Part shown: piece after piece, positions 1 through 32,000 of the stretch
Numbering within the stretch: the stretch's first letter is position 1
How the letters are laid out: every line of letters begins with the position of its first letter
NCBI GenBank assembly: GCA_963662715.1
Contig: OY759724.1
Coordinates: 1,110,001 to 1,142,000, forward strand
Source of the DNA: Candidatus Omnitrophota bacterium
GTDB taxonomy: Bacteria; Omnitrophota; Gorgyraeia; Zapsychrales; JANLHA01
Length of the DNA: 32,000 nt
Direction: 5' to 3'
The notes under the pieces: model-generated
Database searches by the model: none
What the model saw: only the letters and a program-made list of their open reading frames with translations
Told to the model about the DNA's origin: nothing
Made by a program: the position numbers and the translations under genes

Positions 1-3000
1 CAAAACATACGCCGCGCACCTTAGCGGAAAATTCTTTTCTGAAAGATTTCCCTTCCTCTTCCATAGTCCTGTTAAAGGCACCGGCGACCGCCGCAAATGT
101 ACTCATGTTAGACTCCAGAGGAATGCTCCAGCTGCCGATTTCAAGCCGCCCAAACCTTCTAAATTTTTGATTGCTTTGTTTTGCGCCTCCCTTTACTCTG
201 GGTTCCCCCACCGGCGAACTGGTATTATCTGTTTTACTTAACCTTGCCGCTTCGGGTTGGATAATGCCTAAGGCCACCAGTTTTTCATAAAGGGCCTTTT
301 CCTGAATGCCCAAAGCTTCGGCAAGCTGCCCTCTCGACAGAACTTGATGGTTCGCCTCAATGAACCGCAATTCCTCCTTCTTCCTCTGAATCTCAGCCGT
401 GGTTTTTCCAAGATCAACAGCCAGTTGGGCTTCATCCTCTTCCCTTCGCCTTGAGAGTTCTGCCTCTTCCTGATTCTGCCATTTATGCAGTTCGATATCC
501 TCGTTAATCAATCTTCTCATATATCTGCGGTCGGCTTTATGTTGTCCGCTGTCCTCCCATCCGTATGCGGCATAGATGCCCTCAAGACCTTTCTCAAAAT
601 AAATATCAGCGATCACTCGAAAGCCCTCCAGCATATTCTCGATGATCGCCACCGGCTTCTTAAAATGAACAGCCAGAGCCTTTGCATCCTGGGCTCCATT
701 GGCCACAAACAGACGCCACAACAGTTTTCTTTCTTCCCGGCTCCACCGGGTATATTCAAACCAGGTCAGCCTCATCTTGATTGCACTCGTGTTCCATTCG
801 AGATCACCGGCCAAAGTGGCATTATTCAATTCCGCATAATGGTTTCTGATATAAGCTAATTTTTCGAGCTGCTGCTTGGTTGTTTCAACATCCTTCCTGA
901 TCTGAGCAGCTAACTTTTCTGTCTGCTCGGGCGCGGGCATCTCGCCATACGGCAGACTCTCTTTAATCCACTGAATCAATATTTTCTCCTTGGCAGGGTC
1001 CCATTTTCGCCTTCCCTGAGGACCGGCTTTCCTGACCTGCGGGGCAGGGGCGGCAGCACTATGAGGGAGTTCTCCTTCCTGGACTCCGGCGGTATCTTCT
1101 GGTTCTGATGGCGATAAAGCTTCTGCTTTCGACGGGATATCCGGACAAATTTCTGTAGGAACAATATTATTGAGGACAAGACCGGTGATGTCCAGATAAT
1201 CTTCCCCGTAAAATTCATTGATAGAAGACATCCGGGAAAAGAGAACATATCCGTGCCAATTCACGGACACGACCTGCTGCCGGGACTGATTGAAAATATA
1301 AAACGTCCCTTTCGAGCCGTACCGGTAAAAATATTTATTTGCGGCCTGTTGCCCTTCGGCCTCTCTTTCGTTGATGGTTTCTTTGATCTTCTTTTCGTGT
1401 GCACGTGGATCACGCTGCCTATCAATCTTAAAGTCCCTTTCTCCCCGCAAAACGGCCACGATATCCCGGCTTAACCCCGCGTTAATCTTTCCGGCCCCGA
1501 TCTTATCCGCCGCGCCAAGAACATGAGCGGCAAAACCTTCCTCCGAAAATTCCAGAATACGCATCACGTCACCCAGAGGCCCAACGACAACAACTAAAAA
1601 TCTTTGGCCCTTTTCCAAATAAAAATGTTTATAAAACCGCGTCGCACCGCTTCTGTCCTGATAACGGCTCCCCCGGAAAACTTTCCCTTCCCTTAAAACA
1701 TGGGCAATATTGGAAATCACTTCTTCTTCATTAACAATCCTTCTTGCCTGAATATCTGCCCCGAAATACGTATCCCCGGTTCTGGCATGATTATTCACAA
1801 GCATTTCGCCAACCCGCTGCCATCCAAAAGGCCGTTTCCCGCGGTAAGAGGGGTACCCCTGGAATAAGACACAGACGTCAGGGACAACAACTTCCCTTCC
1901 TCTGTGTCGGAAGATCAGCTCCAAGCCTTGCCTTTCCACAACCGCAAGCGGCAGGAACCATCCGCTCTGAATCTCCCGGGTTAAACCGACCGCCTTTATC
2001 TCGGCTGCAAATTTCTCATAAGCCGCCGCATCACTCGCTTCATGCCTTTCCGTCCCCTTTACCGGTGAACTGGTCGGCTCGACCGGGCTTGATGCCGTTT
2101 TATCATCATAAGGGATCCGCAGTCTTTCCTGAAAAGCAAGCTGGTTCATTGTTCCGCTCCGGACCTGCGAGAGAAAATACTCCAGTTTATATTTACTCAC
2201 ATGCAGAGCTGTTCTGCCGCGGCTTTGCGACAGGAAGGACAGATACAGACGCGCGGCCACGCCCTGAATGATACCAAACTCGTATTCCATAAAATCTTCC
2301 ATAAACGCCTTTGTCAGACCTTTAAACCGGCCCGTCGCTCTTCCGTGCCGTATATATTTCTTCGCCTTAAGCCGATTAAAGACGCTGTGTGCCTCCTCTC
2401 CCAGCAGACTCAAGAAGCTGTCGGCGGAAATCGCCCGCTCATATTTCTTGTGTATGGAGGCAAAACGTCCTTTATGCTCTATAAGAACCTGCATAATGAC
2501 TGTCTTGGCGAACATAGCCGTCAAAATTTTCATAACATCAAAATTCTTAATAACAGGTTCACCCGGTTCTTCTTTACCGAATTTCTCATAATACATCCGG
2601 CCTATTTCTAATTTAACAGCCTCTGCCAGGTGCGATAGATAAATAAACCGGGCGCCTCCCCTCCACGGGACAAGAATGACCGGGATTTTCTGCGATGCAA
2701 ACCTTTGGTAAAGCCGCTTCAATAAAGGCTGATCCGATACAATTTCCATGAGGGAATGTCCGGCAAACGGAGCTTCCCGCATGACGGACATGGCTTCGTC
2801 CAACCGGTTCACCTCCGGATAAGCAGCAAAGATATCCTGCGCTTCTTGTATCTTTTTAATTACGACATGATAGCGTCCCAGGAATTCTTTCATCCTGGCG
2901 AAATCCGAATTGAGCCTTCCCCAGCGGGAGACAATATCCATCAAATCAGCCGTCAGCTGTCTGGCCCACAAGAGATCTTCGTACCACTGAGTCTGCCGCC

Positions 3001-6000
3001 GCTCTAAAACACGTTTTCTAAACCGCTCGATAGCCCCCGGTTTTCTTCGGGCCCGGTCATTTTTGCCGTTGAACAGTTTATTCACGGTTATCTCCTTAAA
3101 GCCATGGCTCTCCGCAACGGCTTTATAAGGCTTCCCTTCCAAAAGCCTTTGTCTGACGAAAGACATGAAGACATCCCTATCCACAGCCGCAGTGATAAAT
3201 TCATGGCCAATCTTCTCCGCGACTGTCATCACCTCCGTCTCCAGTCCCGCCAGCTGCCCGGCGAGCTGCTTCAAGATCCAGTGCGGCTGTTGTTCCACGA
3301 TGTGTCTCATTAAATGCCGGGCTACAGATACTTCCTGCATATCCGTGGCCATGGCCGTCAGGACAAACTGTTCGGGAATAATCCGCAGATGCTTCCTTAA
3401 AGTCGTCCATTTCATTCCCATTTTCTCCGCCAACTGTCTCCGCGTCAGCTTTCTATCATCCTCCAAAGCCTCGACAAGGCGGAGAAAATACCGTTTCTGA
3501 ACATCCCGGCCCTGCCAGTTGTCTCCGACAGCCTGCATAAGTTCAAGAAGGTCGGAGTCCCAGTGATCAATAATAAACGCAAACAGTGTTTCTCTGCGTA
3601 AATCATAAAACCTGTCAATCAAGGCGTCCCGCAACTCTGAAGGAGAGACTTCAAATATTCTCTGATAAAGGCCTTTCATGGCAAAAGCCTTGTCAATCCG
3701 TCCGAGCAAGGCCCGGGTGACCATACTCACGCTGACGCCCTCCTCCCTATGGGCAATAACTTCATCCAGCTCGGCGACCGACACGACAGCCCGCGTGACA
3801 GCTTCATTCAGGATGTTATATTCGAAATCACTGATAATCTTTTCCGTCCTCGCTTTATTTAATTTCAGAATTATTTTCTGCGGGGGATAAGAACGGATGA
3901 CCTCTCTGAGCCAAACACGTTCCGGAGTTAAACGTTCAATTTTCCGAGCCTTGATTTTGACCGTCTGGGCTCCTTCATCCTCTACGGGAGAACTCTGCCT
4001 ATCCGGAGCTTTGGGAGCCCCGCTTGTCTGCATCTCTGATAAGACCCGGGTCATAATGACCTGCCCTATGACCTGACGGAACGGAGTTGGCCGGTACGGC
4101 GCGGCTTCCTGCAGGAGCTGTGCCATATCGCCCTGCCACGGCCGGATCATGTTTGAAAAGGTCAATTCGTCCTTCATCATTTGTTGAGGTTTCATAAGAT
4201 GGTTCTTAGCGTACTCTGACATATAATCCGCCGCCCAATGAGCGTCATTAAAATCACGCTCAAAATCTTCAACCGCATCGGTGTCAATGACGAGATATCC
4301 TCCTGAAACCAAAGGTTCGGTCAGGACCTGGACTGTTTTTTCGCGATCATCATCTTCATCGACTTGAATTTTATCCTCGGCTTTCAGTTTAAAATACCGG
4401 ACCGGCAATATTCTCAAAATAAGCAGGCCGTCACTCTGAATCTTGATATAATTCCCTCTCACGTGCTGATAGGTAAAAAGGTTTCTCAGTTCCGGCATCT
4501 CCTCGCCGTCCTGATTGCGTATCACAGGCTGACCGTCATCCGCAAACTTGACCTTGTATAGAACGTCATTCTCATGGTCCAGCATCGTCAAATCCATTCC
4601 GGAATCCTGGGTGACAAGCATCTCCTCCTGGGTAAGTGAATAAATCACCGGCGTCATACTGTACGGCGCATCCCGGAAAGCCTCCTGAATATTCTTCGGA
4701 ATAAAGGTTGTGACATAATCAATCCTGTCCGCCAGCGTCTTTTCAGCCGCTGAAGACCGGACCGTTTGTTTAATGACCAACGTCATCCGGTCCAACATCT
4801 CTCTCGCCGCCGGACGGCCATGAAAACTTCCGATAGCTTTAACATTACACCCGTCAAATCTGAAGACAGCCAGCTTGCCTTCCCGGGCGTCCCACAAAAG
4901 AACCGTAAACTCATCAGACTGCCGCCCCATCCTGAAAGTAATATCAAAATTCTGGCTCAGAGGATGCTCCCCGCTCAGTCTTTCTGCCGGGGAAAGGGAT
5001 CTGCGGTCGTACGCTAAAAGCATAATATAGTTTATGATTCTCCGCAGGTTGGAATAGCCGGTAAAGACATTGTCCCGTCCTCTGATCATCTCGCTGCGGT
5101 AAATGATTCTCCGCTCGATGATGGTGCGCAAAGTCAGTTCAATACGCGAAGGATCTTCTGCCTCCAATGCCTCTTGATATCTTTCAATAAGATCAAAGAT
5201 CGACTCCTGATATAAAGAACAATAATCGGAAACAGCATCAAAATCATTCAGTTCATAAGCCAAACCGTTCCGGGCAATTCTTTTTATTTCTTTCGCATAA
5301 TACGGGGAATACGTTCTTATTTCGCTCCTCCGTACGGAATTGATGCTTTTCTGCAGCTTTTTGATAATCTGCGCCCGCTTAACAAAGGCGGTTTCGCTGT
5401 CCTGCTCCTCTTCCAAAGAGTCTAATTGAGCGGCGGCGTTTTCAAAATAACTGGCATATCTGAAATGAACAACATTCGCCGTCTGAACAGCCTGCTCATG
5501 CAAACGGTCTGCCATCATGAGAGCTTCCTCTTGCGTTGTCAGGTCCCCTCTGAATACGGTTGACAGGCCTCCGTACATATTGAAGTCTTCCGGAGTGAAA
5601 TTATCCAACAACTCCCTTATCCCCGAACGCTTCTTCACCCCTTCAATCACCTGCGTCCGGAATCCCGGCTTATCATCGATGATATCCTGAATCCATGACT
5701 CCGCATTGTACGACATGTCGGCTTCTTCCTCTTTGTAACGGAAAATAATATAAAACGTCGGGCCCTCGTTAAATACGCTGAAATTCAACCCATCCGTGAT
5801 CAGTCCTTCATCCCTGGCCTTTTTGATCATTCTTATCAAAGAGCCTCTCAATGCCGAGCGGATAACCTTGGCCAAAGCGATTGCGCCTAATTTATGGCCA
5901 ATACCCAGATTTTCTCCTCTTGTATTAAATTGCCGCTTAAAGTCATGCCCTTTTAAGACAGCAAGCTGTACACCCCCATGATGCCCTTTCAGGAACTGAA

Positions 6001-9000
6001 CCAGATGTTCGGCAAATGAAAAACGGCTTGTCATCTCGGGCAGTTCTTGAAAAGCCCCGTTCTGGGTTTTTATAATGTCTAATAAAGACGGGGCAGAAAT
6101 CGGGCTGCTTTGCGTCAGCGACTTTTCATAGCCCTGCAAAATATCGGCAACAGCTATCTGCAGATAATCATAAATCTGAATTCCTCTCTTCATGCGCGTC
6201 CTGATTTGTTCTTCATGCTCTGCTATAGGGTTGTTTTCCGGCCGGCAGATTTCCAGCCATTGAACATAACGCCGATACTCTCCATACGACCCCATGATAA
6301 TCGTGTTCTCAACCTGCGGATGGAACGCATGCGGGGCTCCGAACTGGCTGCTTGTTCCGTCAAGAAAATAAACCGGATCATCATGAGAATAAATCAAGCC
6401 CAAGGTATGGCCCTGAGCCTCCAGCGTTTCGGTAATCCCGTAACCAAAAACTATTTCAATCCTATCCGGCCCCTGGTCGACCGCAAGGCCATATATTTCG
6501 GACAATACTCTTACCAAAATATAGGCCGATAACGGACATAATCCCGCCGGGAAACCCCGCTCTGTCTGCAAGGCAAGAATCTGATGTAATTTTCTCAAAT
6601 GATCATTATGCCGGGCGTTGATCTGGCTCAAGGTGTCGGGTAAAGTCGGTAAATAAACCAGCGGAGAAGAAGCCCCCGGGAGGGCAAGACCCCAAGCAGG
6701 GACAGTCACAATACGGAACGTTTCCGCTTCCGGCAGAAGATGTTCTCCCTCACCCTTTCGGGAATCCCCTGTCCCAAGACGATATCCCGATATTTGAAGC
6801 ACATCCTCTTTTCCTCTATTGTGTCTGTCCCCGCTATTTAATTTTCTTTCAGCCGAAATTCTTTCCGGCATAAGCTGCAGAGAATCATGGCCCTTCTGAA
6901 TTTGAACCGGGCTGGAAGCCACAGGACCGCTTTGATCAGACGACGATCCTGGCTTATCTGTTTCATCGCGCCGTTTTTCATATTCGGAAACAAGATGCCC
7001 CATCTGCCCGGCAAGACGCACAGCGCGTGTATAGGCCCACGGATACCGGTAAGAGCGGTCAACGACCTTTGACAATTTTGCAACCAGTTCCTGAGCGTCC
7101 CGGGCCGGTTGTTTGAACCATAACGACAAAACTTTCTGAGCATCGAGATGGATACGCTTTTGCGTTGTTTTCATAAGCGTCTGTATTAAGACCCGCTTCA
7201 ATGTGTAAATATCCTTATACCTGAACGGCATTGAATAAGGCCGGTCATAATCAATGAGTTTGACATCAAAATTGGACAAGACCATCACATTGTGCAAGTG
7301 AACATCCGTGTGACTCATCCCCCTGGAGTGGAAGTAAGCCAAGGCTTGAACCAGTTTAAATAACACATTCAGAACTGTACCGAAATCCCAGGTGTCGATA
7401 TCTCCATCTTGTATGATGGCCTCAAGGTCTTTTCCTTCTACAAATTCCATGACGACAAACTGCCGGGAAAGACCATCCATGATGACCTGCGCATAATCTA
7501 ATATGCTCATAACATATTTGAACCGGCCTATCTTGTTAATAAGCTGTTGCAGTTTTTTCGGATCAAACCTTTTGCGTGCTTTTGCTTTTTCGAGTTTTAT
7601 GGCGACGAACTCTCCGTCTTCCTTCTCGGCTTTATAAACCCGGGCATTGCCGCCGACAGATAACTTATCCAAGATTCGATATCCCAGAGGCAAAAATGCT
7701 TCCCGGATACTCGCTTTTTCTTTTTGTGTCTCATCCAGGACTAATTGATTGACGCGCTGGTGAATGACGTTAGACGGATGGTGTTTTTCTTCAACATGAT
7801 TAGGGTCTTCAAATGAAGCGATATAGGTCAAGGCCGCCCGTTTCGCTCCGGGTTCAGGGAACTCCACGTCAAACCTGAAAAGCAGATCATCCGAGGAGAA
7901 ATAAACCTCCAGTTCACCCTGTTTATTAATACTGCCGCCGATGAACTCATCCCATCCCGGCATATCATTGATGACCCTGAATTTGATTTTCCGGCCTTGA
8001 TATTCCGGAACGAGCCTATTAAATTCTTCAAGGTCCGTGTACCCCTCCTTCCTGATATACTTCTGCATTGTCGATAATATACGTGCATCCATTGTTCCAA
8101 TAAACGGAGTCCAATGGCCGCCTCTTTTAAACTCATTCCATTGCGTTGCTCCGGGAGCGCTCTTTACCGGAGAGCTCGAGACAACCATCTCGTGCGCAAT
8201 AACAATTTTCGTGCCGTGCTCAACCGGGGTATTCCTTAAAACAACTTCTTTTTCGTTGAGCCAGTCCGTATTCTTGTTCTTTTCGTAATAATAAGCCCGC
8301 GGTTTCTCCGTCACACGATCAACCGTGGTGACAGAAACAGCATCATACTGATCCATAATGACAGGAAGGCCGATGCCAAACATCCCTCCGAAACCAGGAC
8401 TTTCCTCCCATTGCACAGCCTTATGAACCGGCAGATGACGGAAAGTGACTCTGTTCACAAATCCCCGGCCGCGGTCTAAAATCACCGCTGTCAATTTCCA
8501 TCGCCCGGACGGCCCCGTTCCCCAGCGCATGAGAAGCGCTCCGTACCGGCCTCCATGCTGTTCAATATTCTGCACGCCGGCCCTGACACCGGTCAGGATA
8601 TCGCTCATATTCCGGCAGAAGTATGGGTTGTGCGGCATCGCCCTGTCTGCGAACGTCTTAACAAATTCGTACAATTCATAGGCGGTCCCGATTCTGATCA
8701 CCTGATTTAGTCCGGTTGTATCATAATCCGTTCTAAAAACAGCCTGCAGTTGATTCCTGATCTGTTCCGCCTTTTGCGGACTCTTTTTGTTTAAACTTCG
8801 CCATAATTGGAGGATATGATCATTTTCCTCTAGTGTAAAAATCCGGCTTTCCAGCATATCCGCCTGAGATACGGGAGAACTCCCGATATCCTTGTCATCT
8901 GCAAATACGTCCCGGGACATAACTGAAGCATCTTCATCTGAACTTAAGCCCCACTCACCGGAAATTTCATATTCCCGGATAATTTGATTCAAATAATCCA

Positions 9001-24000: not shown

Positions 24001-27000
24001 TATCCCAATTCTTCCATTCCGGGGAAGCCTCAAAATGTTCCTTTAACTCCAGCCGACTCGGGGCCTGGCCTGAATATTGCGGGTAGTACCCCGGCCTTTC
24101 TTGGACCGCGTTCAGAGGAATCACCACCGGAGCTATAGAAGCATAAACTTGACGCCGCACTCTGGCAAACTGATCAGCGGTCAGATCTAAAATAAAGGAA
24201 AGACCGGCAACCTCGACAATCCAGAATTCATGAAAATCAGAATGCAGTAAAGCGCTCACAACAGATTTAAAGGCATGGACCTTGGGGATTCTTTCTAACC
24301 TAATCTTCACCGTCCGGTCTTTCAAAAGATTCAATTTCCGGACTTGTTTATTCGTGTCGTCGCAATACTGCGCTATCTTTGTCTTTCGTATTCTTGCACG
24401 ATAATAATCTTCAATGACCGGCTGATTCCAATCCTGAATCAAAGCAAAGAAGGCCTTGATGTCTTCCCGCTGTTTCGAATCAAGTCTTGTTTGACCGAAC
24501 GCTAACTCAACGGCACGGCGGAACGCATCCCGGCCCAGAACCCGGCAATACTGTTGCGGGATGAACGGCTGGTATCCGTATTGATCCTTCAAAGCGGCGG
24601 CGATGATTCTGAGGTTAATCAGGTCCTGCTCCCGCTCATAGATATTCAGCAGCTGTTCCATCCTTATAGGGTTGTTGCCTTTCGCCGCCACAAGCCGTTT
24701 GATGACTCTTCTTCTTTTCTCAACGCCTTCCGGCAACCGATCTTCCCGTACAGGCGAAGAGGTCGGCTTGTCCCCGTCATCCGCCTGACTCCGGCCTTCA
24801 GCCTGATCTCTTCGGATTTTTTCCAGTTCCAGGGTATATAACTCTGCCATCTCTTTCGCAAAATATTCCGTTATCTCCGCCGGGAGCTTCAAGCGGACAA
24901 TAAAGGCGATACTTTGATCAAGATATTTTTCCGCTGATTCAACGCTGCGTTTATATCTCGGGGTCTGATTGTTGTGCAGTCTGTCGGCAAATTTGATTAA
25001 TTTCACATCCAGAGGCGCTTCATTGACCAGGCGATCCAGATATTCTTCATCCGTTTCTCTCGGGCTCTTTGTCAACATCTCCACTTTTTCCAAGACCTTC
25101 GCTCCGAGATAATAGGCGATTAACGATCGCAACTTCTCTCTTTTATATTCGCTTTCCGCATCTTCAATGGCATCATGCAACATAGCGACAGCAACCATCT
25201 CTCGCCAGTCCAGGTTATGAGAAGCCAGCAACGGATGATACGTTCTTAACAGATCAAACAATATTTTCACGACCGTGAGAGGATGCACCAGATAAGGCTC
25301 CCCATTGGCACGGACTTGTTTCCTGTGGGCAAAGAGCGCGATATACAAGATCATTTCATATTTAATAGCTTTTGTCCCGGGATAAAGCGAGTTCAGCTCT
25401 TCCTTGGCGTCTTTCCACAATGATCGGGCCTGTTTCGTCAAAGATTTATAGTCATAGTACCGGAAAATCTTTTCATACATAAAGACAACTGTTTCCACGG
25501 ATGTATCATCAACAACAAACATATTCGTCCTGCGGGTGCCCTGTAATTCCAAAAGGCCTGACTGAGCAAACCATTTTCTAGCCGTTGTGATCAGACGCCC
25601 ACCGACATAAAGATGTTTGATCAAATTCCCGGCCACAATGCTCGTCACAAACTGGGTCTGGGTCTCATAATCTTTCTCTAAAATATATTCTTTAAAAATA
25701 TACGTGATCAAATGAAATTGGCCGAATGTTTCCATATCATCCATATCCGTGAGAGATTCGATATATATGGGGTTAATAATCTCTCGATATTCCTCTTTCA
25801 GCTGATATGTCTGGCCTTTGACTCTTTCAAAATATCTGTCTCTTAGGCCTTGATTCATCTCGTTCAGATCCCCGAACCATTCCTGAGAGTATTGGCCTTC
25901 TAAAGCCTGCCGAAGCGCCTGCTGATCCGAGTCAACCGCTGTAATTTCCAAGGCTTCAAGAGGGATGCTGGAATGTTCCAAAATTTCAATAAGCATCTTG
26001 TGGGCAATCAGTTTAGGCCCGTCTCCGAACAAAGACACGCCCTCCGCGGCAAGAATCCTTATTTTCTGTTCGCCTCCCTTTTCTTGCAATTGACTGTAAA
26101 CACTTTCCAGATAGGGGATGGACTCTCTGATCTGTTCCGCGAAGCCCTCTTGCTCCCAGAAGTACAGTTTTCTCCCCGGCTTCCAGATATCTTTAAGTTT
26201 CCGGACAATAGTCTGTTCCGGAATTCTCATATACTGCAGAATCGCCCGGATTTTATCTGTCCAATAGGAATCTCCGGAAGTGTTGTCATCCGGGTTTTCA
26301 ACCGGAGAAGAACCGTAACGGCCCTGATGTATCTGCGTTTTAATCCTGTTTTCGATCTGATCGGCGGTATCAACACTTCTGAAACGCTGAACATCAGCAG
26401 GAGAAATCATCCCGTAACCCAACAGTGTTGTCTTAAAGATTTCTTCCCAATTGCTCCAGAACTCCCGTCTGACGGGTATCACAGAAAGCCCGGAAACTTT
26501 TCTGGTCTGAACCAGAGTCAAAGCTTCCATAACGGTATCTATGGTGTCTATGGCATCAGGAAAACTGAGGATGAAATCGCTATAACTTATAATAAACGTC
26601 TTCCTGATGAACTGGTGGGTCAGGCCAAGATCCTGGTTAGTACCGTCCAGAGAATCGTCCGTGTTCCCGTTAATGGGAATAAACTGCGCCAAAAAGTGTC
26701 TTCCCCGGTAATCATCTTTCGCCTGCAGATAGCCTTCTCTGGCCGCCGCCCCAACGCCTTTGGTCTCGGGCACAATAAGAGAAATCCCTTGGGAAGCTAA
26801 ACGGCGGGATATTTCCCTGGCCGTATCCATATCATCCGAATTGATCACCCGGGTTGATCCCAGGACCGAAACAATCGGTCCGGGCGTCAACCTCAGCTTT
26901 CTCATAACCCGGTACATTTCCCGGCGGATAAGATTAATGTCAATTTCAAAAACATCCCGGCTCTTATTCTTTTCTAAATGACTACTGATCGTACTCAAAA

Positions 27001-30000
27001 TACGGTTGGCGTTGCCATCCAAACTCACCATGTCCCAAGGACTGTTTAATAAATATCCGTTGATATAATCGCGGGCCAATTGCTCTATCACCTGTTCCCA
27101 GAACGGCAGGGCAATAAGCGGTGTCGCTAAATCAATGGCGCCCTGTTCCTTCAAGGCGAGCATCGTGTAAAGTTCATTTAAAGTTCCGACTCCGCCGTAC
27201 TCAAATACGCCTGCTTTGGCAAGTTTCACAAAAGAGACCAGCCGGCTGAAGAAGTACTTGAAAGCCAGTTCTCTGTTAACGTACGGGTTTGAAGCCTTCT
27301 CACGAGGCAGCTTTATTCTCAGCCCTACCGAATCAGCGCCCGCTTCACACGCGCCTTTATTGGCTGACTCCATCACGCCCGGGCCGCCTCCGGTAATAAC
27401 CGGGTATCCCAACAAAGCCAGCTCTCTGGCCAATTGTTCAGCGAAAACAGATGACTTTCTGGCTGAGCCATAAAAAGCCACGCCAGGCTTAACCTTTTTC
27501 ACTTTCTTGTGTAGTTTGATCTCTCTGACACCTCCGCTGATAAAACCGAATGAGAAATCTTTTCTGCCGTTCCAGACTTTATCCTGTACCGGTGAACTGG
27601 CGACATCATCCGCAGATTTCTTCCTTAAAACAACATGCAGGACACCGTCAAAATTCATCCCTTCCTCTTCCGTCAATTCCCTGTAATCATCCGCTTCCCA
27701 TTCCATAATACCCTTCCGCTCGCTGATCCGTTTCTCTCCGCGAATCGAAACAATTTCAAAATTATTTCCTTTGGCCGTATTTATGAGTTGTCTCTGACTT
27801 TTAATGCCTTTTTCGCTAAAGGCTGTCTGTCGTCCCTGTGTGATATCATTCTGGACAAGGACCACGGCTCCCGGCAGAAGCCCCTCAGATAGCTTTCGGA
27901 AAACCAGATCCGCATCCACATAATTCAAGACATGAGAAATAATCACCGTATCACATAAACCATAAATATGGGAAAGCGGCCCGCGATGACCTCGGGATCC
28001 AAAGAACTGCTTCACTCGCAGGATTCCGCTCTTTTTCGTTCTTTCCGGATAATGAGCGTCTCCCCGCAAAAAGAGGACGTTCCCCTGCCGGAAGAATCCG
28101 TTTCCGACGCCCCTATCAAAGGAAACGATTCTCTTGTCCGGGAACATCTTGGCCGACAGCGGATTATTTTTCCCGCCTATTTCGAGAATACGTGTCCCTA
28201 AAACGCCTTTTTCTTCGAGTTCCTGAAGAAGATTTTCAAAAGCAAAATTATACCCGAATCCTTTATTATTCCAATTATCGACAAAGATCAATTGAACAGT
28301 TTCTTCAGCGAGCGGGGCCCTTGTCCGTGTCCGTTGGTCGTGCATAACCGGGCGCAAACGAATCACAAGGTTCTCTGCCCCGTAACGCAGTTCCATATAA
28401 GGCTGCCCGCCCTCGCAAAGCCGGACTTCAATGCGTTCTTTATCCTGACGGAACAAAAATGCTTTATAGAACACCGCGGACTTCCCTTCCGTTCCTGCGG
28501 ATCTCATCGTTGTCACCCGATAGTTCGGGTCGATGTTTTGCGGAATATGTTTATGGAAAAATTGAATGATGGATATCATTTCTGCCGGGATATATCCCTG
28601 GACCATTAAAGTTCCGACCGGGCCTTCCGCCTGGGCCGTTCCCATAAGCATCTTTCCGGTCTCGAGACGGGCATAAACATGATAAAAGACCTTCCGGGGA
28701 ACTTTAGGATTGATATAAAGTCTTAACACAAACTTTAATCCTGTCTCCGCATCAAATGTCTGGACAATCCACCTTTCTCCTTTAAAGCGCTGCCCGGTTA
28801 AATACAGTTCACCCAGGACCGGGATACGGCCCTTCGTGTGCCGTACGCCCCGGAAGAGGCCCATTCCTTTCAGGTAAAAAACAAGGCGTACAGACTGCGG
28901 GGTGAATTTAGCCATCGCGGCCTGAACGCGCCGTGTTTGCAACAAATCAAGAACGATCTTTTCATCTGCCCGGCCGTAAAGACGCTTAAATAAATCGCCC
29001 AGCCCGCTCTGGTTAAACTCTTTGACAAATTCGGATAAAGTTAAGGCATATCCCTGATAAATTTTTAAATACCGAATCAGCAAGCCTTTTTGGCTCTTTC
29101 CATATACCGGGTTCTCCGCCTGCATTTCCGACGACCATTCCTGTCTTCCGGGGTTCGTAAGCGGTGAACTGGTGATGGGGAAGTCAGGGACATCAACCGG
29201 TGAGAGATGCCCGCCGGCCTTCAGCAAGATTTTTCTAACCAGAGAGAAATCCATGAAAGACTCCAACTGCGATTCGGCCAATTCCTCCGGATCCAGCAGG
29301 AGAACTCCGCCCAAGGCCACGTATTCGGAAGGCTTGGAATAAGCGTGCTCCAGGCACATTTTCCAAAGCAGGCCAGGCACCATATAAATATCATTTGAAA
29401 TAATTTGTCTGAACTGCTGTCCCGGCCAGAATCCGTCCACAACCTGTGAGGCCATCTTCAGGGTTGCAGGGACATGATCCACCGTTAATTTATCGCAGAT
29501 ATTAACCCAGACATCTGAGCCGTCGACACCTGGAATCTTCTTCTCCCAATTCCAGTCCCGGGAATCCCTGATCATGCTGAGAGGCAAATGCTCTGCGCGG
29601 ATTCTTTGGCCTGCATCGGATATATATCTAAAGCTGGCCTGTTCAATAAATTCTCTCCACGCCGTTAAAGGAACTTTCCGGTAAATAAAGACATGCAGAA
29701 ATTCCTCTACAATACCCGAAATATCGACGCTGCCACCGGAAACTTCTATCCCTACAATGGAAGCATCGGAGTTCCAGAAAGACCGTCCGAGGACAAAAGC
29801 CAGCTTAACATCTGTCAAATGAGCTGAAATACTCTTGGGGAACCGATCCAAAACTTCCGCGACGGCAGCTAAAACACTCAAATCCACATCGTCAAGATTA
29901 AGGGGCATGACGCCATAAGAGGATATCTTTCTCAAATACCGGCTTCTTAACCTTATCGATTCCGTGACTGGAGAGCTGGAAAACGCCCGGCTCTTTGTCG

Positions 30001-32000
30001 CCTCAGCTATAAAAATATCCGACGTCCGGCTGTGTTTTATAAGTCTTCTGAGCTCTCCCTGGACAAAATGTTTATTCGTGCGGGCATTCGCGGCGCGGAG
30101 AACCCGAGATAAAATATACGCGAATTGTTCTTCATTGAGATGTTGCATAACGTCCCGGTCAGCCATCGCGGCTAAAAATCCCTGCAGCTGCCGCCAGTCC
30201 GGTGTGGCCAAAACGCATTCGGAAAGGATTCGGACGTTTTCTGCGGGGTTATCAAAAGTGAACCAGCTGGCCATAGCATCGGCCACGCTAAGAGGATCAT
30301 GTCTCTGGACCTTCTGCAGGACGGAAACAGCAGCCTGATTCTCCAGGATATGGTCGATGAAGGAAGCAACGCGATGATCGAGCCGGTAATTGATACGGGC
30401 TAAATACGCTTTCAGGGAAGGAATGACAGAAGGAATGGTCGCAGGGCGATAAACAAAATGGTACGGCCTGCTGGAATCCAGATACGCGGTGATCCAGTCA
30501 AAGACAGAAAACACTTCGGACAACATATTGTTATTGGAAGGCCGGTGATGGTTTAAGATAATATGCTTCTCGGAATCGCTCAAAGAAATGGCTTCGGCCT
30601 GTATCCTATCCACGGACCCGCTGGTGTGCACAAGGGTGATATGGGCCCGCTGCTCATCGAACAATTCTCCCGGATAATTGACCATAGGAAGTATGGAGCT
30701 CTGCCCTTTGCCGAGATCGTGCATCAGCCCCATTCTCCAGAGCATATAAATGTCCTCTTCCGGCAGATCAAATTGGCGGCCGAAAATAACACCCAATTCT
30801 GATACGGCCTCTCCATGCCGCCAAACGTTTAACATGCCGGACCGGTACAAAGATCTTAATAAAGACTTTTCTTTCGACCACAGGGACACATCGATCGGGG
30901 AGCTGTTAACCTGCTGTGTTTTAGCCCGGACCGGCTTCTTGTGACGGAAAAGAATAACGCCTCCTTCGATGTAATCATATATAGTTTTGACGTCCTGATG
31001 CGTTGCCCTTTCAACTTGTTGCCCGAGAAGCCGTAACTTTCCTGCATCAAATTCCTGTTCATGAGAGGAAACCGATCCCTCATGGTCTTCCTCAAACGGG
31101 ATGGAAACAACTAGCGTCCCGCTGACAACTTTTAACCAATCCAGGATATATTCCAACGGAGTTTTATTCATTAAATGTTCCAGGACATGATTGACAACCA
31201 TAAAATCAATAAGCTCCCCTCCCAGGGTTGTTCTCACGTGTTGGACAAAACCCGGATCATTGACATCAGCAACAACCCACTGCGCATCCAACTGAGGATA
31301 CGAAACAGCTTGCTCAACAGCAAATTTCATATCCGTCAGCTTATGATCTAACCCGACAAATTTGACTCTTCTAGAAAGCTCTCCGGGCAGGAGATTAAAA
31401 GCCGTAAAGATAAAATGGCCAAAGCCCGTGCCCAGGTCTGCCACGCGAAGCGTTCTATCCGGATTTGCCGTTAAATCTTTTTGTAAGGCCATGATGGCAA
31501 CAGCGTAAATCCAGCTAAAATGCTGGATGTGACTATAATCCGGCCCGTTCAATTGATATTGCCGATAACGATATTTCTTCCTTCCTGTTATCAACGCCTG
31601 TGTTTGCTCTTCAAAAGCTTTTTGTGAATTTCTGAAGAATTCCGCCAAAACATCATCCATCGCCGCTTCCCGGCCTAATTTAGTCCGGTTCAGCCAGGAA
31701 ACAAGCTTGAGGATTAAACCTGAGCGACTTATATCTTGTCTTCTTGCCCGTCGGCTTTGGGGCACTCGCAGAAACCCTTTTCCGAACAAATCCTGCGCTT
31801 CAATACGTTGCTGCCAGACACTGTCCCGGTCAATAAGCCTTGCTGCCTGATTTTGGCTATTCACAAAATAATGGACAGCACGCCGCACCTGCCCATGGGT
31901 TAATGTCACCACTTGTTCCGCCTTTAGCAGTTCCATTTCATGGCCGGTATAGCGTGTCTCTATATTTTGTTGTTTTAATATCTCATCGAATTTTTCCGGA
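1..32000 (-). CDS. Internal fragment (>=10,666 codons) of a single giant multidomain ORF, partial at both ends; in-frame codons span 2..31999
   Basis: No ORF-track entry lies in the minus frame with first codon base = 1 mod 3, consistent with no stop in that frame. Hand translation at both edges (31999: PEKFDEILKQQ...; nt 2: ...FSAKVRGVCF) and at more than 30 anchor motifs across the window is all in this frame and protein-like. The other five frames hold only short ORFs. Confidence 0.9.
209..220 (-). other. SSP[VILM] inter-module motif (TSSPV)
   Basis: minus codons agt tcg ccg gtg, in frame. Confidence 0.85.
2060..2071 (-). other. SSP[VILM] inter-module motif (TSSPV)
   Basis: minus codons agt tca ccg gta, in frame. 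Confidence 0.85.
2081..2092 (-). other. SSP[VILM] inter-module motif (ASSPV)
   Basis: minus codons tca agc ccg gtc, in frame; first of a tandem pair ASSPV-EPT-SSPV. Confidence 0.85.
3385..3455 (-). other. Helix-turn-helix-like segment
   Basis: DRKLTRRQLAEKMGMKWTTLRKHLRII has a classic HTH residue pattern. Similar segments: EGKPYKAVAESHGFKEITVNKLF (about 3075..3145) and LSRGQLAEALGIQEKALYEKL (about 270..345). Confidence 0.3.
3983..3994 (-). other. SSP[VILM] inter-module motif (QSSPV)
   Basis: minus codons agt tct ccc gta, in frame. Confidence 0.85.
6098..6109 (-). other. SSP[VILM] inter-module motif (QSSPI)
   Basis: minus codons agc agc ccg att, in frame. Confidence 0.85.
6350..6560 (-). 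other. Candidate Cys-His-Asp (transglutaminase/papain-like) catalytic core
   Basis: GFPAGLCPLSAYILVRVL (Cys codon 6536..6538), 43 aa later GHTLGLIYSHDDPVYFLDGT (His 6407..6409, Asp 16 aa later). Spacing and local context resemble GxCxxxA...H...D transglutaminase-like cores. Weak, based on motifs only. Confidence 0.3.
6659..6670 (-). other. SSP[VILM] inter-module motif (ASSPL)
   Basis: minus codons tct tct ccg ctg, in frame. Confidence 0.8.
6749..6781 (-). repeat. Mini-repeat RLGTGDSRKGE (copy 3)
   Basis: Plus strand ctcaccctttcgggaatcccctgtcccaagacg; lies in a 78-aa module between two SSPx motifs. Confidence 0.75.
6905..6916 (-). other. SSP[VILM] inter-module motif (ASSPV)
   Basis: minus codons tcc agc ccg gtt, in frame. 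Confidence 0.85.
7240..7685 (-). other. Domain: protein-kinase-like fold, RIO/Kdo(WaaP)-like atypical kinase
   Basis: YRILDKLSVGGNARVYKA + EFVAIKLEK (Gly-loop and VAIK Lys, about 7600..7680); VVMEFVEGKDL hinge; catalytic loop GMSHTDVHLHNVMV; VKLIDYD (DFG equivalent, about 7245..7320). No APE or long C-lobe is seen. Confidence 0.6.
8165..8179 (-). other. SSP[VILM] inter-module motif (VSSSPV)
   Basis: minus codons tcg agc tct ccg gta, in frame. Confidence 0.85.
8320..8650 (-). other. Domain: GHKL/HATPase_c-like ATPase (RsbW/SpoIIAB or histidine-kinase catalytic type)
   Basis: N-box-like AGVQNIEQHGGRYG (about 8540..8580); G1-box AVILDRGRGF (about 8465..8495); G2-box SPGFGGMFGIGLPVI (about 8360..8400). 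Confidence 0.55.
8870..8881 (-). other. SSP[VILM] inter-module motif (GSSPV)
   Basis: minus codons agt tct ccc gta, in frame. Confidence 0.85.
9790..10050 (-). other. Possible cytidine/nucleotide deaminase-like zinc-binding motif pair
   Basis: GRHAHAEINLI (H-A-E = 10025..10033) and INLTTCQHCAEVL (C-Q-H-C = 9800..9811). This resembles H[AC]E...PCxxC of the CDA fold, but the spacing is about 71 aa (canonical about 25-35) and Thr replaces Pro. Confidence 0.3.
10745..10756 (-). other. SSP[VILM] inter-module motif (QSSPI)
   Basis: minus codons tcc agc ccg att, in frame; only 11 aa after the previous motif. Confidence 0.85.
10790..10801 (-). other. SSP[VILM] inter-module motif (QSSPV)
   Basis: minus codons tct tcg ccg gtt, in frame. 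Confidence 0.85.
10802..11956 (-). repeat. Paralogous module B (385 aa) of the tandem duplication
   Basis: LSEIETVF..RKFSQPIEFGVYLIA..FSHILVP; KNQQADHSLGFAHVHNSFTKAEKE; LTLLSPQD..SVL; MGQRWFDIA..LKDFRK; ends in QSSPV. Divergence is protein-level (roughly 30% identity by eye), so this is an ancient duplication rather than a DNA repeat. Confidence 0.8.
11957..11968 (-). other. SSP[VILM] inter-module motif (ASSPI)
   Basis: minus codons tct tcg ccc atc, in frame; sits exactly at the junction of paralogous modules A and B. Confidence 0.85.
11969..13195 (-). repeat. Paralogous module A (409 aa) of an internal tandem duplication; unrecognised domain family
   Basis: Shares ordered blocks with module B: LNEIEEVF..KGFAKPIQFGAYIIA..FTHFIMP; ANQQANQELGYVHLHYSYTKAERK; LTLLTPKD..SVL; IGQRWFDVN..MKDFRE; ends in ASSPI. 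Confidence 0.8.
13196..13207 (-). other. SSP[VILM] inter-module motif (VSSPV)
   Basis: minus codons tcc agc ccg gtc, in frame. Confidence 0.85.
13290..13740 (-). other. Domain: class I SAM-dependent methyltransferase (copy 3, Methyltransf_11/25-like)
   Basis: GRRILSVGSGRGELE (VGSGRG = 13655..13672); VKAIDVVPEMV; FDLVIFPYSVEHI; ARRVLKNGGKLLIIG (about 13395..13440). Confidence 0.8.
13874..13885 (-). other. SSP[VILM] inter-module motif (ISSPI)
   Basis: minus codons tca agc ccg atc, in frame. Confidence 0.85.
13973..14008 (-). repeat. Mini-repeat MNLGTGELMKGE (copy 2)
   Basis: Plus strand ctcacccttcatcaattcccctgtcccaaggttcat; 54 codons downstream of copy 1 in the same 121-aa module. Confidence 0.8.
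14135..14170 (-). repeat. Mini-repeat MNLGTGDSEKGE (LGTG[DE]xxKGE copy 1)
   Basis: Plus strand ctcacccttttcagaatcccccgtcccaaggttcat. About 80% identical in DNA to copy 2 and in frame with the giant ORF. Confidence 0.8.
14249..14260 (-). other. SSP[VILM] inter-module motif (VSSPM)
   Basis: minus codons agt tct ccg atg, in frame. Confidence 0.75.
14999..15010 (-). other. SSP[VILM] inter-module motif (VSSPV)
   Basis: minus codons tct tct ccg gtc, in frame. Confidence 0.85.
16109..16120 (-). other. SSP[VILM] inter-module motif (QSSPV)
   Basis: minus codons tca tcg cct gtc, in frame. Confidence 0.85.
16140..16400 (-). other. Tetratricopeptide (TPR) repeats, about 2-3 units
   Basis: ALNQIGHIFAGQSLWPDAEKVFARVMNIDSRNTEALNGLAETAWRQGHAEDAMKTYQHVLSIDPANREAQEGLNRL shows the typical 34-aa TPR periodicity (A/G/Y/P pattern). 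Confidence 0.6.
16740..17985 (-). other. Domain: GT-B fold glycosyltransferase, family-4-like
   Basis: N-terminal KLRIAFVAFSFPPVMGGVNIV (about 17925..17985). C-terminal EX7E-type block LLFPSWMETFGIPLIEAASVRTGVIASDL (about 16905..16990). Confidence 0.7.
18230..19520 (-). other. Domain: GH63-like (alpha/alpha)6-barrel glycoside hydrolase (mannosylglycerate hydrolase / glucosidase-I-like)
   Basis: GFYEAFWIWDAAFAALAL (about 19265..19320); NPDGGL; GLCEWKDALESGWDNSPRWD (about 18962..19020); FYWRGPVWLNLAYFMVD (about 18440..18495); YEYYNSQTGRRGEG...DFSWSAA (about 18250..18345). About 450 aa upstream (19520..20866) could be the N-terminal beta-sandwich. Confidence 0.7.
20867..20884 (-). other. SSP[VILM] inter-module motif (QSSSSPV)
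   Basis: minus codons tct tcc agc agt cca gtt, in frame. Confidence 0.85.
21100..21540 (-). other. Domain: HD superfamily phosphohydrolase (copy 3, HD-GYP/HDOD-like context)
   Basis: LHILEHATAVVLLGTYIAHELGL ... LRLAGLAHDLGKLE (H-D = 21392..21397) ... MLSHGQSALKLL ... IELHRGG. Confidence 0.6.
23954..23968 (-). other. SSP[VILM] inter-module motif (GSSSPI)
   Basis: minus codons tct tct tct ccg att, in frame. Confidence 0.85.
24749..24760 (-). other. SSP[VILM] inter-module motif (TSSPV)
   Basis: minus codons tct tcg cct gta, in frame. Confidence 0.85.
24900..25370 (-). other. Domain: RelA/SpoT-type HD domain ((p)ppGpp hydrolase-like)
   Basis: FAHRKQVRANGEPYLVHPLTVVKIL; VAVAMLHDAIEDAE (H-D = 25172..25177); VKLIKFADRLHNNQT (about 24975..25010). 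These match the three signature blocks of SpoT/Mesh1 hydrolase domains. Confidence 0.75.
25450..26150 (-). other. Possible degenerate CheR-like/Rossmann methyltransferase-like region
   Basis: IRILAAEGVSLFGDGPKLIAHKMLIE ... ITAVDSDQQALRQALEGQYS ... FHLITYIFKEYI ... LYVGGRLIT resembles the CheR layout, but the canonical residues are absent. Confidence 0.25.
26300..26311 (-). other. SSP[VILM] inter-module motif (GSSPV)
   Basis: minus codons tct tct ccg gtt, in frame. Confidence 0.85.
26420..27495 (-). other. Domain pair: LOG/TIGR00730 (PpnN-like nucleotide 5'-monophosphate nucleosidase) Rossmann fold, followed by a degenerate second copy
   Basis: GVAFYGSARK; PVITGGGPGVMESANKGA (GGGPGVM = 27371..27391); FEYGGVGTLNELY (27182..27202), i.e. 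the GGGxGxM and PGGxGTxxE LOG signatures. A second half (IVSVLGSTRV ... LIVPETKGVGAAAREG ... SFPDAIDTIDTVMEAL) repeats the layout with degenerate motifs. Confidence 0.65.
27587..27598 (-). other. SSP[VILM] inter-module motif (ASSPV)
   Basis: minus codons agt tca ccg gta, in frame. Confidence 0.85.
27740..28210 (-). other. Domain: SAM-methyltransferase-like Rossmann fold (copy 2)
   Basis: GTRILEIGGKNNPLS (ILEIGGK = 28169..28189), VSFDRG, CDTVIISHVLNYV and LLPGAVVLVQ in canonical MTase order. Confidence 0.5.
29159..29170 (-). other. SSP[VILM] inter-module motif (TSSPL)
   Basis: minus codons agt tca ccg ctt, in frame. Confidence 0.8.
29966..29980 (-). other. SSP[VILM] inter-module motif (SSSPV)
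   Basis: minus codons tcc agc tct cca gtc, in frame. Confidence 0.85.
30400..30860 (-). other. Domain: HD superfamily metal-dependent phosphohydrolase (copy 1)
   Basis: VWRHGEAVSELG ... WRMGLMHDLGKGQ (H-D codons 30716..30721) ... ILNHHRP. This is the typical H...HD...H pattern of HD domains. Confidence 0.65.
30893..30904 (-). other. SSP[VILM] inter-module motif (NSSPI)
   Basis: minus codons agc tcc ccg atc, in frame. Confidence 0.85.
30990..31600 (-). other. Domain: class I SAM-dependent methyltransferase fold (copy 1)
   Basis: Motif I RVADLGTGFGHF (VADLGTGFG = 31418..31444), then KFVGLDHK, WVVADVND, FMVVNHVLEHL and GTLVVSIPFEED (about 31085..31140). Order and spacing fit a Rossmann-type MTase. 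Confidence 0.7.

Follow-up and report, generated by a model that had tools for sequence, protein, structure and literature searches.

The tetrapeptide Ser-Ser-Pro-[Val/Ile, rarely Leu/Met], written here as SSP[VILM], recurs along a giant protein encoded on contig OY759724.1 of a Candidatus Omnitrophota bacterium, and it is well supported as a selected junction signal between the modules of this protein. The stretch that was analysed (positions 1,110,001 to 1,142,000 of the contig, referred to as the window) comprises 32,000 nucleotides (nt) from the interior of a giant multi-enzyme gene. Its minus-strand frame with offset 1 runs through 10,666 codons without a stop and is open at both window ends; the other five frames hold 286-621 stops each. 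The open reading frame (ORF) thus exceeds 32 kb, and its product of at least 10,666 amino acids (aa) is a chain of protein-sized modules, each of which has its counterpart elsewhere in a complete free-standing protein or in a small enzyme of several domains. The motif that separates these modules is strict and conserved, lies in disordered sequence at the junctions, and is absent from free-standing homologues. The feature in which it is found can be described as follows:

2..31999 (-): single ORF, internal piece of a giant multi-enzyme gene, with no stop in frame and with Pfam, NCBIfam and PDB domain matches along its length

Count, strictness and codon use of the motif

In the giant frame, SSP[VILM] occurs 25 times against 0.40 copies expected from composition, and in 2,000 residue shuffles the motif appeared 0.39 times on average and at most 5 times. 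A preliminary description, made from the sequence without database searches, had listed 25 in-frame copies and estimated that fewer than one would arise by chance; all of its positions match (it gave the low coordinate of each 12-nt site), and the shuffled controls agree with its estimate. The sites are listed below in window coordinates, with aa as the residue number in the giant frame.

30893..30904 (-): SSPI, aa 366
29966..29977 (-): SSPV, aa 675
29159..29170 (-): SSPL, aa 944
27587..27598 (-): SSPV, aa 1468, about 35 aa N-terminal to the LOG/SLOG domain
26300..26311 (-): SSPV, aa 1897
24749..24760 (-): SSPV, aa 2414, just past the SpoT-like HD hydrolase
23954..23965 (-): SSPI, aa 2679
20867..20878 (-): SSPV, aa 3708
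16109..16120 (-): SSPV, aa 5294, just past the end of the TPR array
14999..15010 (-): SSPV, aa 5664
14249..14260 (-): SSPM, aa 5914
13874..13885 (-): SSPI, aa 6039, start of a 226-aa methyltransferase segment
13196..13207 (-): SSPV, aa 6265, end of the methyltransferase segment and start of paralogous module A
11957..11968 (-): SSPI, aa 6678, junction of paralogous modules A and B
10790..10801 (-): SSPV, aa 7067, directly after module B; conserved in the relatives P0001, P0002 and P0015
10745..10756 (-): SSPI, aa 7082, tandem copy of the preceding site
8870..8881 (-): SSPV, aa 7707
8165..8176 (-): SSPV, aa 7942, start of the kinase-like segment
6905..6916 (-): SSPV, aa 8362, end of the kinase-like segment
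6659..6670 (-): SSPL, aa 8444
6098..6109 (-): SSPI, aa 8631
3983..3994 (-): SSPV, aa 9336
2081..2092 (-): SSPV, aa 9970, first of a tandem pair
2060..2071 (-): SSPV, aa 9977, second of the tandem pair
209..220 (-): SSPV, aa 10594

SSPV (16 observed, 0.11 expected) and SSPI (6 observed, 0.10 expected) are the two most over-represented 4-mers of the whole protein. The tripeptide SSP is found 26 times, followed by Val in 16 cases, Ile in six, Leu in two, and Met and Arg in one each. None of the variants TSP, STP, ASP, GSP and SSA precedes Val, Ile, Leu or Met anywhere in the giant frame, which indicates that the motif is a strict tetrapeptide and not a by-product of Ser/Pro-rich sequence. It is preceded by a small or polar residue, never by a charged one, and the remaining flanking positions carry little information. 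The two tandem pairs already recognised in the preliminary description are spaced by 7 aa (2060/2081) and 15 aa (10745/10790). Neighbouring sites are a median of 380 aa apart, a length typical of ordinary bacterial proteins.

The codons used at the 25 sites are diverse: five Ser codons appear in the first position, six in the second, four Pro codons in the third, and nine codons in the fourth, with Ser switching between the AGY and TCN families. This variation points to a constraint at the protein level, in agreement with the earlier view that the motif is a protein feature and not a DNA repeat. Two codons are over-used at the sites. The Val after SSP is encoded by GTA in 6 of the 16 SSPV copies (e.g., 27587, 24749, 8870, 8165, 3983, and 2060) compared with 7% of all Val codons of the ORF, and the first Ser is AGT in 7 of 25 copies compared with 13%. 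This over-use could reflect selection for a slow codon at module ends.

Position of the sites among domains and modules

The domains of the giant protein were identified by Pfam (cut-off E<=0.01), NCBIfam and PDB sequence searches, and the two paralogous modules by BLAST between segments. Those recognised are the following:

27008..27457 (-): LOG/SLOG domain (Lysine_decarbox), aa 1515-1664; Pfam 4.5e-19; PDB match to cytokinin riboside 5'-monophosphate phosphoribohydrolase, 3.7e-32
aa 2006-2084 (-): CheR-like methyltransferase, in the same segment as the next domain
24962..25336 (-): HD_4 / RelA-SpoT-type hydrolase, aa 2222-2346
21143..21499 (-): HD domain, aa 3501-3619
16142..19306 (-): GH63/MGH1-like glycoside hydrolase (aa 4232-4553), GT1 glycosyltransferase (aa 4888-5066) and TPR array (aa 5212-5286)
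13328..13723 (-): class I S-adenosylmethionine (SAM) methyltransferase, aa 6093-6224
11960..13198 (-): paralogous module A, aa 6268-6680, uncharacterised family (segment BLAST)
10793..11959 (-): paralogous module B, aa 6681-7069 (segment BLAST, AlphaFold)
7235..7681 (-): short kinase-like domain (Bud32/Kdo-like), aa 8107-8255

As had been claimed earlier, every copy of the motif lies outside the recognisable domain cores. None of the 25 sites falls within the nine Pfam domains or the two modelled modules, which together make up 19.5% of the protein (permutation P=0.004). Moreover, several sites lie close to the expected ends of folds. The LOG fold is expected to start near aa 1463, and there is an SSPV at 1468; the SpoT-like hydrolase is expected to end near aa 2392, and there is an SSPV at 2414; the TPR array stops about 4 aa N-terminal to the SSPV at 5294. 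The flanks of the sites are hydrophilic, with a mean Kyte-Doolittle value of -1.01 against an average of -0.36; such a low mean was not reached in any of 20,000 resamples. Hydrophobic residues are depleted asymmetrically around the motif, from about -10 to +24, which places it at the C-terminal border of a module, with a spacer of some 20 residues behind it. These linkers are charged and hydrophilic, and are not low-complexity Pro/Thr sequences.

The clearest case is provided by modules A and B, which show 32% identity over 390 aa (E=7e-59) in a nearly end-to-end alignment, so that the SSPI at aa 6678 is located exactly at their junction. The observation that site 11957 marks the boundary of two paralogous modules is thus borne out by the alignment. 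Their relationship is visible only when segments are compared with each other, as BLAST of the whole protein against itself returned the self match alone. The structure of aa 6661-7100 was modelled with AlphaFold using an alignment of homologues. The model has a mean predicted local distance difference test (pLDDT) score of 79.8; its core (model residues 35-406) is mostly above 90, and residues 1-34 and 407-440 are below 50. The SSPI, SSPV and SSPI of this region are all included in these tails, and in the model the three motifs around module B are therefore predicted to be disordered, as expected from the proposal that the sites lie between folded domains.

Searched exhaustively with HMMER, a set of 1.84 billion representative proteins yielded 14 matches to aa 6250-7100. 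A word-indexed protein search gave almost none and missed homologues recovered by HMMER, so that method is insensitive for this protein. Seven of the 14 matches are free-standing proteins of 350-420 aa with 24-31% identity, which align from about 30 residues before the module core to within 10 residues or fewer of the module end, that is, they stop where the giant proteins bear the motif. SSP[VILM] is absent from all seven, indicating that it is a property of the fusion and not of the module. One of them, P0004, is encoded by a separate gene of 369 aa on four contigs (L083-L086), with other genes on both sides.

The neighbourhood of P0004 may represent a conflict-system context. Two TPR-CHAT genes and two small ORFs of about 145 and 176 aa precede its gene, a gene with a type IX secretion system (T9SS) sorting domain comes after it, and genes for a Type ISP restriction enzyme and for RadC are found nearby. 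With respect to the module A/B family itself, its members conserve a Glu, a His-x-His and a (Ser/Thr)-Pro-x-Asp, with Gln replacing Glu in module A, a pattern reminiscent of a JAB/MPN metallopeptidase together with an inactive partner. A JAB/MPN+ (JAMM) identity found no support, since the modules gave no Pfam match and no PDB profile match, hhalign against a RadC JAB domain returned a probability of 0.2%, and Foldseek against PDB and BFVD yielded sub-threshold matches only.

Other modules of the window deserve comment. It contains three methyltransferase-like regions. The glycoside hydrolase, the glycosyltransferase and the TPR array share one motif-free segment of 1,586 aa. The HD domain of the second segment (aa 371-511) is paralogous to the one that ends the eighth (aa 3466-3625; E=6e-8), which makes this pair a second case of module duplication in the gene. 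The kinase-like module holds a Gly-rich loop and a VAIK lysine, its catalytic loop reads HTDVHLHN, DYD replaces DFG, and both an activation segment and an APE motif are missing. From these residues and its NCBIfam matches to Bud32/Kdo kinases, it resembles small kinases of this type rather than Hanks Ser/Thr kinases. Neither NUDIX nor peptidase domains appear among the Pfam and NCBIfam matches across the 10,666 aa.

The motif in related giant proteins

The remaining HMMER matches are fragments of giant proteins. P0002 and P0015, which form one cluster, and P0011 are annotated as Candidatus Omnitrophota, while P0005 comes from a 1.6-kb contig annotated as Zixibacteria; P0001 shows 63% identity. 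Six fragments bear the motif:

P0001: 1,832 aa, 3 copies of SSP[VIL]
P0015 (HPN56572.1): 1,641 aa, 7 copies
P0003: 299 aa, 3 copies
P0005: 538 aa, 5 copies
P0011: 484 aa, 4 copies
P0008: 322 aa, 1 copy

Their combined 5,116 aa contain 23 copies, where about 0.4 would be expected, and every SSP in them is followed by Val, Ile or Leu. The search of homologous giant proteins proposed in the preliminary description has therefore recovered the motif, though one relative, P0016, has none. In their placement the copies match those of the window, flanking the homologous module at its two ends even where module identity falls to 22%, and the spacers around them are not conserved between the window and its relatives. 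Likewise, tandem copies in both are separated by 5-25 non-conserved residues.

Where orthologous junctions could be compared at the DNA level, between the window and contig L081, the motif is encoded by different synonymous codons (TCTTCGCCCATC versus TCTTCCCCTATC, and TCTTCGCCGGTT versus TCTTCTCCTATT), which reveals selection on the protein residues. In P0015, only one motif-bounded segment matches the window. The other segments of this fragment are unrelated to the window and are also bounded by the motif, which is consequently independent of what it joins. A further example is contig L082, an error-prone long-read sequence, with 16 coding-strand copies in 11 kb of giant gene, one copy in the 7 kb of housekeeping genes upstream, and four on the opposite strand. 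On L082 (nt 6150-7420), the giant gene seems to begin immediately behind gyrB, near nt 6898; its first module belongs to the module A/B family, and about 85 aa separate its first SSPI from the probable start.

P0015 also contains an internal signal for the twin-arginine translocation (Tat) pathway. Residues 121-160 hold a perfect twin-arginine consensus (TRREFLK) and a hydrophobic region, beginning one residue after an SSPI. A Tat signal normally needs an N-terminal position. No fold could be assigned from sequence to the module that carries this signal.

The giant gene was placed among the multi-enzyme genes of Omnitrophota on the basis of the taxonomic labels of its homologues, the length of its ORF and its mix of domains; the closest homologues bearing a taxon name are the P0002/P0015 cluster (50% identity) and P0011, all of them from Candidatus Omnitrophota. 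Searches of GTDB representative genomes for close relatives returned generic kinases only, and no useful relatives were obtained by megablast against phages and plasmids, by a search of metagenome contigs of the Joint Genome Institute, or by searches of IMG/VR with the module alignment and with an exact 40-mer. Regarding the composition of the gene, cysteine represents only 0.27% of the residues, and a strong G-over-C skew extends along the whole coding strand. Three plus-strand ORFs of 156-275 aa (1744-2271, 12362-12832, and 25973-26800) run antisense to the giant frame, probably as spurious calls. In the 10,666 aa, transmembrane candidates are limited to two weak hydrophobic 19-mers. No SecA domain was matched by Pfam or NCBIfam within the window; transmembrane helices, a SecA domain and a peptidase domain may lie outside it.

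Proposed protease recognition and competing explanations

Since four residues remain invariant amid drifting, disordered surroundings, the motif must be read by another protein. The reading favoured here, by analogy with processed polyproteins and with a probability estimated at just short of even, is that SSP[V/I] would be a protease recognition site through which a polyprotein-like giant protein is processed. According to this model, a site-specific endopeptidase would recognise SSP[V/I] at the C-terminal edge of each module and split the giant precursor, releasing some two dozen individual enzymes, as occurs in a viral polyprotein or a MARTX toxin. The small-small-Pro-aliphatic sequence is similar to the classical P4-P1 preference of serine proteases of the subtilisin and elastase types (Ala-Ala-Pro-Val/Phe substrates), and this likeness prompts the guess that the cut would fall after Val/Ile. 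We infer cleavage at the motif, as well as the enzyme and the scissile bond. Several observations suggest cleavage: each unit between two sites is equivalent to a complete protein, the free-standing homologues lack the motif, tandem copies are separated by short non-conserved spacers, and the Tat signal of P0015 lies directly behind a site. A wider proposal, regarded as somewhat less likely than not, is that some Omnitrophota would make dozens of enzymes in the form of a single polyprotein, tens of thousands of residues long, in which a dedicated protease would read SSP[V/I] at every junction.

A number of findings weigh against protease recognition. P0016 (3,087 aa), which is 40% identical to aa 44-354 of the window, has no SSP at all, and neither do the first ~3,400 aa encoded on L081. 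P0016 also holds an internal Tat-like signal (residues 690-725), so that internal signals of this kind can be relics. In the window, the longest motif-free stretches reach 1,029 and 1,586 aa, the latter with several domains. The motifs of P0005 and P0011 are embedded in linkers rich in Pro, Ser and Thr (P/S/T), with copies only 5 aa apart, a pattern closer to that of a modified or structural linker than to that of a protease site. In addition, four residues make a short site for a specific protease, Pfam and NCBIfam detect no peptidase domain in the 10,666 aa, and the one candidate metalloprotease, the paralogous modules, failed every test. As for L081, its giant gene is called as three ORFs with two frame switches (nt 4023-4051 and 6140-6194), which are either long-read frameshift errors or real gene boundaries.

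It is unlikely, although by no means negligible, that the motif is instead a sequon for modification of the linker in a chain that stays intact, either by O-glycosylation of Ser by the glycosyltransferase module or by phosphorylation of Ser-Pro. The strictness of the motif and its location in disordered linkers would fit such a role, both a GT1 and a kinase-like module are included in the same protein, and the P/S/T-rich linkers of P0005 and P0011, with their closely spaced copies, recall the O-glycosylated linkers of secreted enzymes. However, Thr never replaces either Ser, as TSP and STP are missing before Val, Ile, Leu and Met. Extracellular glycosylation is not obviously relevant to a protein with almost no transmembrane or export signals, in which LOG, SpoT-like HD and SAM methyltransferase domains are cytoplasmic enzyme types. 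Modification also leaves unexplained why free-standing homologues end exactly where giant proteins bear the motif. The proline-directed phosphorylation that had been offered as an alternative in the preliminary description is further weakened because the only kinase-like module lacks an activation segment and an APE motif and is Bud32/Kdo-like. Proline-directed sites of the CMGC type read [S/T]-P, with Thr accepted, and go with a kinase that has an activation segment and a P+1 pocket. A CMGC-like proline-directed kinase acting in cis was rejected on the basis of this catalytic region (HTDVHLHN, DYD, no APE) and the NCBIfam matches.

An explanation without any reader is that of a passive structural linker, a Pro-containing breaker that ends one fold, starts a flexible spacer and is copied along with the modules. 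The sites do lie at domain ends in hydrophilic spacers, and a duplication such as that of modules A and B would carry the linker along with the module. Nevertheless, linkers normally vary widely, whereas here four residues are invariant and their flanks are not, down to 22% identity and around unrelated modules. Furthermore, synonymous codon turnover denotes purifying selection on exactly these residues, and Val/Ile is strongly preferred over Leu even though Leu is more abundant. This explanation is consequently considered improbable.

Distinctly improbable is also a role as docking motif for a partner (a TPR protein, a PDZ-like protein, or a chaperone or secretion component) that organises, folds or exports the chain module by module. 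A strict motif of four residues, disordered and sometimes in tandem, is typical of short linear binding motifs, the window holds a TPR array, and S-x-[V/I/L] resembles the ligands of class I PDZ domains. In contrast, Pfam and NCBIfam detect no PDZ, WW or comparable peptide-binding domain in the window, no partner domain can be named, and class I PDZ ligands are normally C-terminal, which would again require cleavage.

Finally, a DNA-level element (a recombination or cassette-junction site) or an assembly or gene-calling artefact can practically be set aside: AGTTCACCGGTA and AGTTCTCCCGTA each occur twice and the rare codon GTA is over-used, but a DNA-level origin is effectively refuted by the codon diversity described above, with no repeat at the DNA level, and an artefact by an open frame of 32 kb with real domains and by the same peptide motif in independent assemblies from different studies.

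Comparison with known systems and significance

Giant multi-enzyme proteins of Omnitrophota have been described as the 'Archaeovorin' type (West-Roberts et al. 2023, bioRxiv 10.1101/2023.11.21.568195; also Seymour et al. 2023) and, in a 2026 preprint (bioRxiv 10.64898/2026.06.07.730766), as a 'multi-enzyme metabolic cluster' class, with genes of up to about 147,000 codons. The window resembles these proteins in its mix of glycosyltransferase, glycoside hydrolase, SAM methyltransferase, HD, Lysine_decarbox/LOG and TPR domains, in addition to Omnitrophota homologues, an ORF of more than 32 kb, poor conservation and a large amount of unannotated sequence. The feature set of the Archaeovorin type includes a gene of more than 90 kb and a product of more than 30,000 aa; the ORF of the window, open at both ends, accounts for at least 10,666 aa. 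The set also includes glycosyltransferases, methyltransferases, glycoside hydrolases, peptidases and NUDIX domains, of which the first three kinds are seen in the window, as well as numerous transmembrane helices and a SecA_DEAD domain. The window differs in its two weak transmembrane candidates, compared with approximately one per 370 aa in the densest example of the 2026 preprint, and in having no SecA, C39 or S8 domain within its limits, and the published descriptions include no junction motif.

Cleavage of the giants has been suspected, and S8 and C39 peptidase domains have been reported near the N-termini of other giant Omnitrophota genes, a region that the window does not include. West-Roberts et al. 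(2023) state that it is not known where cleavage would occur, and in a survey of huge proteins it is the protease motifs that are given as the missing information. The 2026 preprint uses none of the words cleavage, motif, linker and junction. Within the literature searched, SSPV and SSPI gave unrelated acronyms only, and no bacterial system using the motif was found, in line with the earlier statement that none was known. The motif is thus undescribed in that literature, and the locus is best filed as an Omnitrophota giant multi-enzyme protein with a feature undescribed for this group.

Membership of the viral polyprotein or MARTX families is not supported, although both are the closest analogues in function. 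As in the viral polyproteins processed by picornavirus 3C, coronavirus Mpro, flavivirus NS2B-NS3 or potyvirus NIa-Pro, a single ORF encodes many units of the size of mature proteins, the same short motif appears at each junction in an exposed stretch with variable flanks, the units are complete, independently folding proteins, and the motif is kept in relatives. In contrast, the window belongs to a cellular DNA genome and its ORF is at least 10 times larger, SSP-V/I is unlike the known viral sites, no cognate protease was detected in the window by Pfam or NCBIfam, and cleavage is only predicted here. In MARTX and large clostridial toxins, a cysteine protease domain (CPD) cuts at P1 Leu in unstructured segments between effectors (PMC2900308, PMC6315884). 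These toxins are also large bacterial multi-effector proteins whose modules are freed at simple interdomain sites, but neither Peptidase_C80 (the CPD) nor RTX repeats were found by Pfam in the 10,666 aa of the window, the site is a strict tetrapeptide instead of a single Leu, and size and module number are far greater. By analogy with them, a predatory Omnitrophota cell might deliver its modules in a MARTX-like manner.

Two other systems offer partial parallels. The P97/P102 adhesins of Mycoplasma hyopneumoniae undergo endoproteolysis at S/T-X-F|X-D/E motifs in disordered regions. They are likewise large bacterial proteins with a short recurrent motif in disordered segments, but the motif is another one, the sites per protein are few, and they are surface adhesins and not chains of enzymes. 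On the other hand, the O-glycosylated P/T/S linkers of secreted carbohydrate-active enzymes are similarly interdomain and contain Ser and Pro, as do the P/S/T-rich linkers of P0005 and P0011; those of the window differ in being charged and hydrophilic, with an exact tetrapeptide that never includes Thr.

Whether the products of giant Omnitrophota genes act as one chain or are cut is an open puzzle, and according to two papers the lack of cleavage points or protease motifs blocks structure prediction and interpretation. The junction tetrapeptide offers a rule for segmenting the giants into protein-sized units, a hypothesis that can be checked in existing metaproteomes, and a starting point in the search for the enzyme that recognises it. 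If cleavage does take place, it would represent operon-scale polyprotein expression in a cellular organism, a counterpart of viral polyprotein processing, and the motif would let giant genes be split informatically into their real products.

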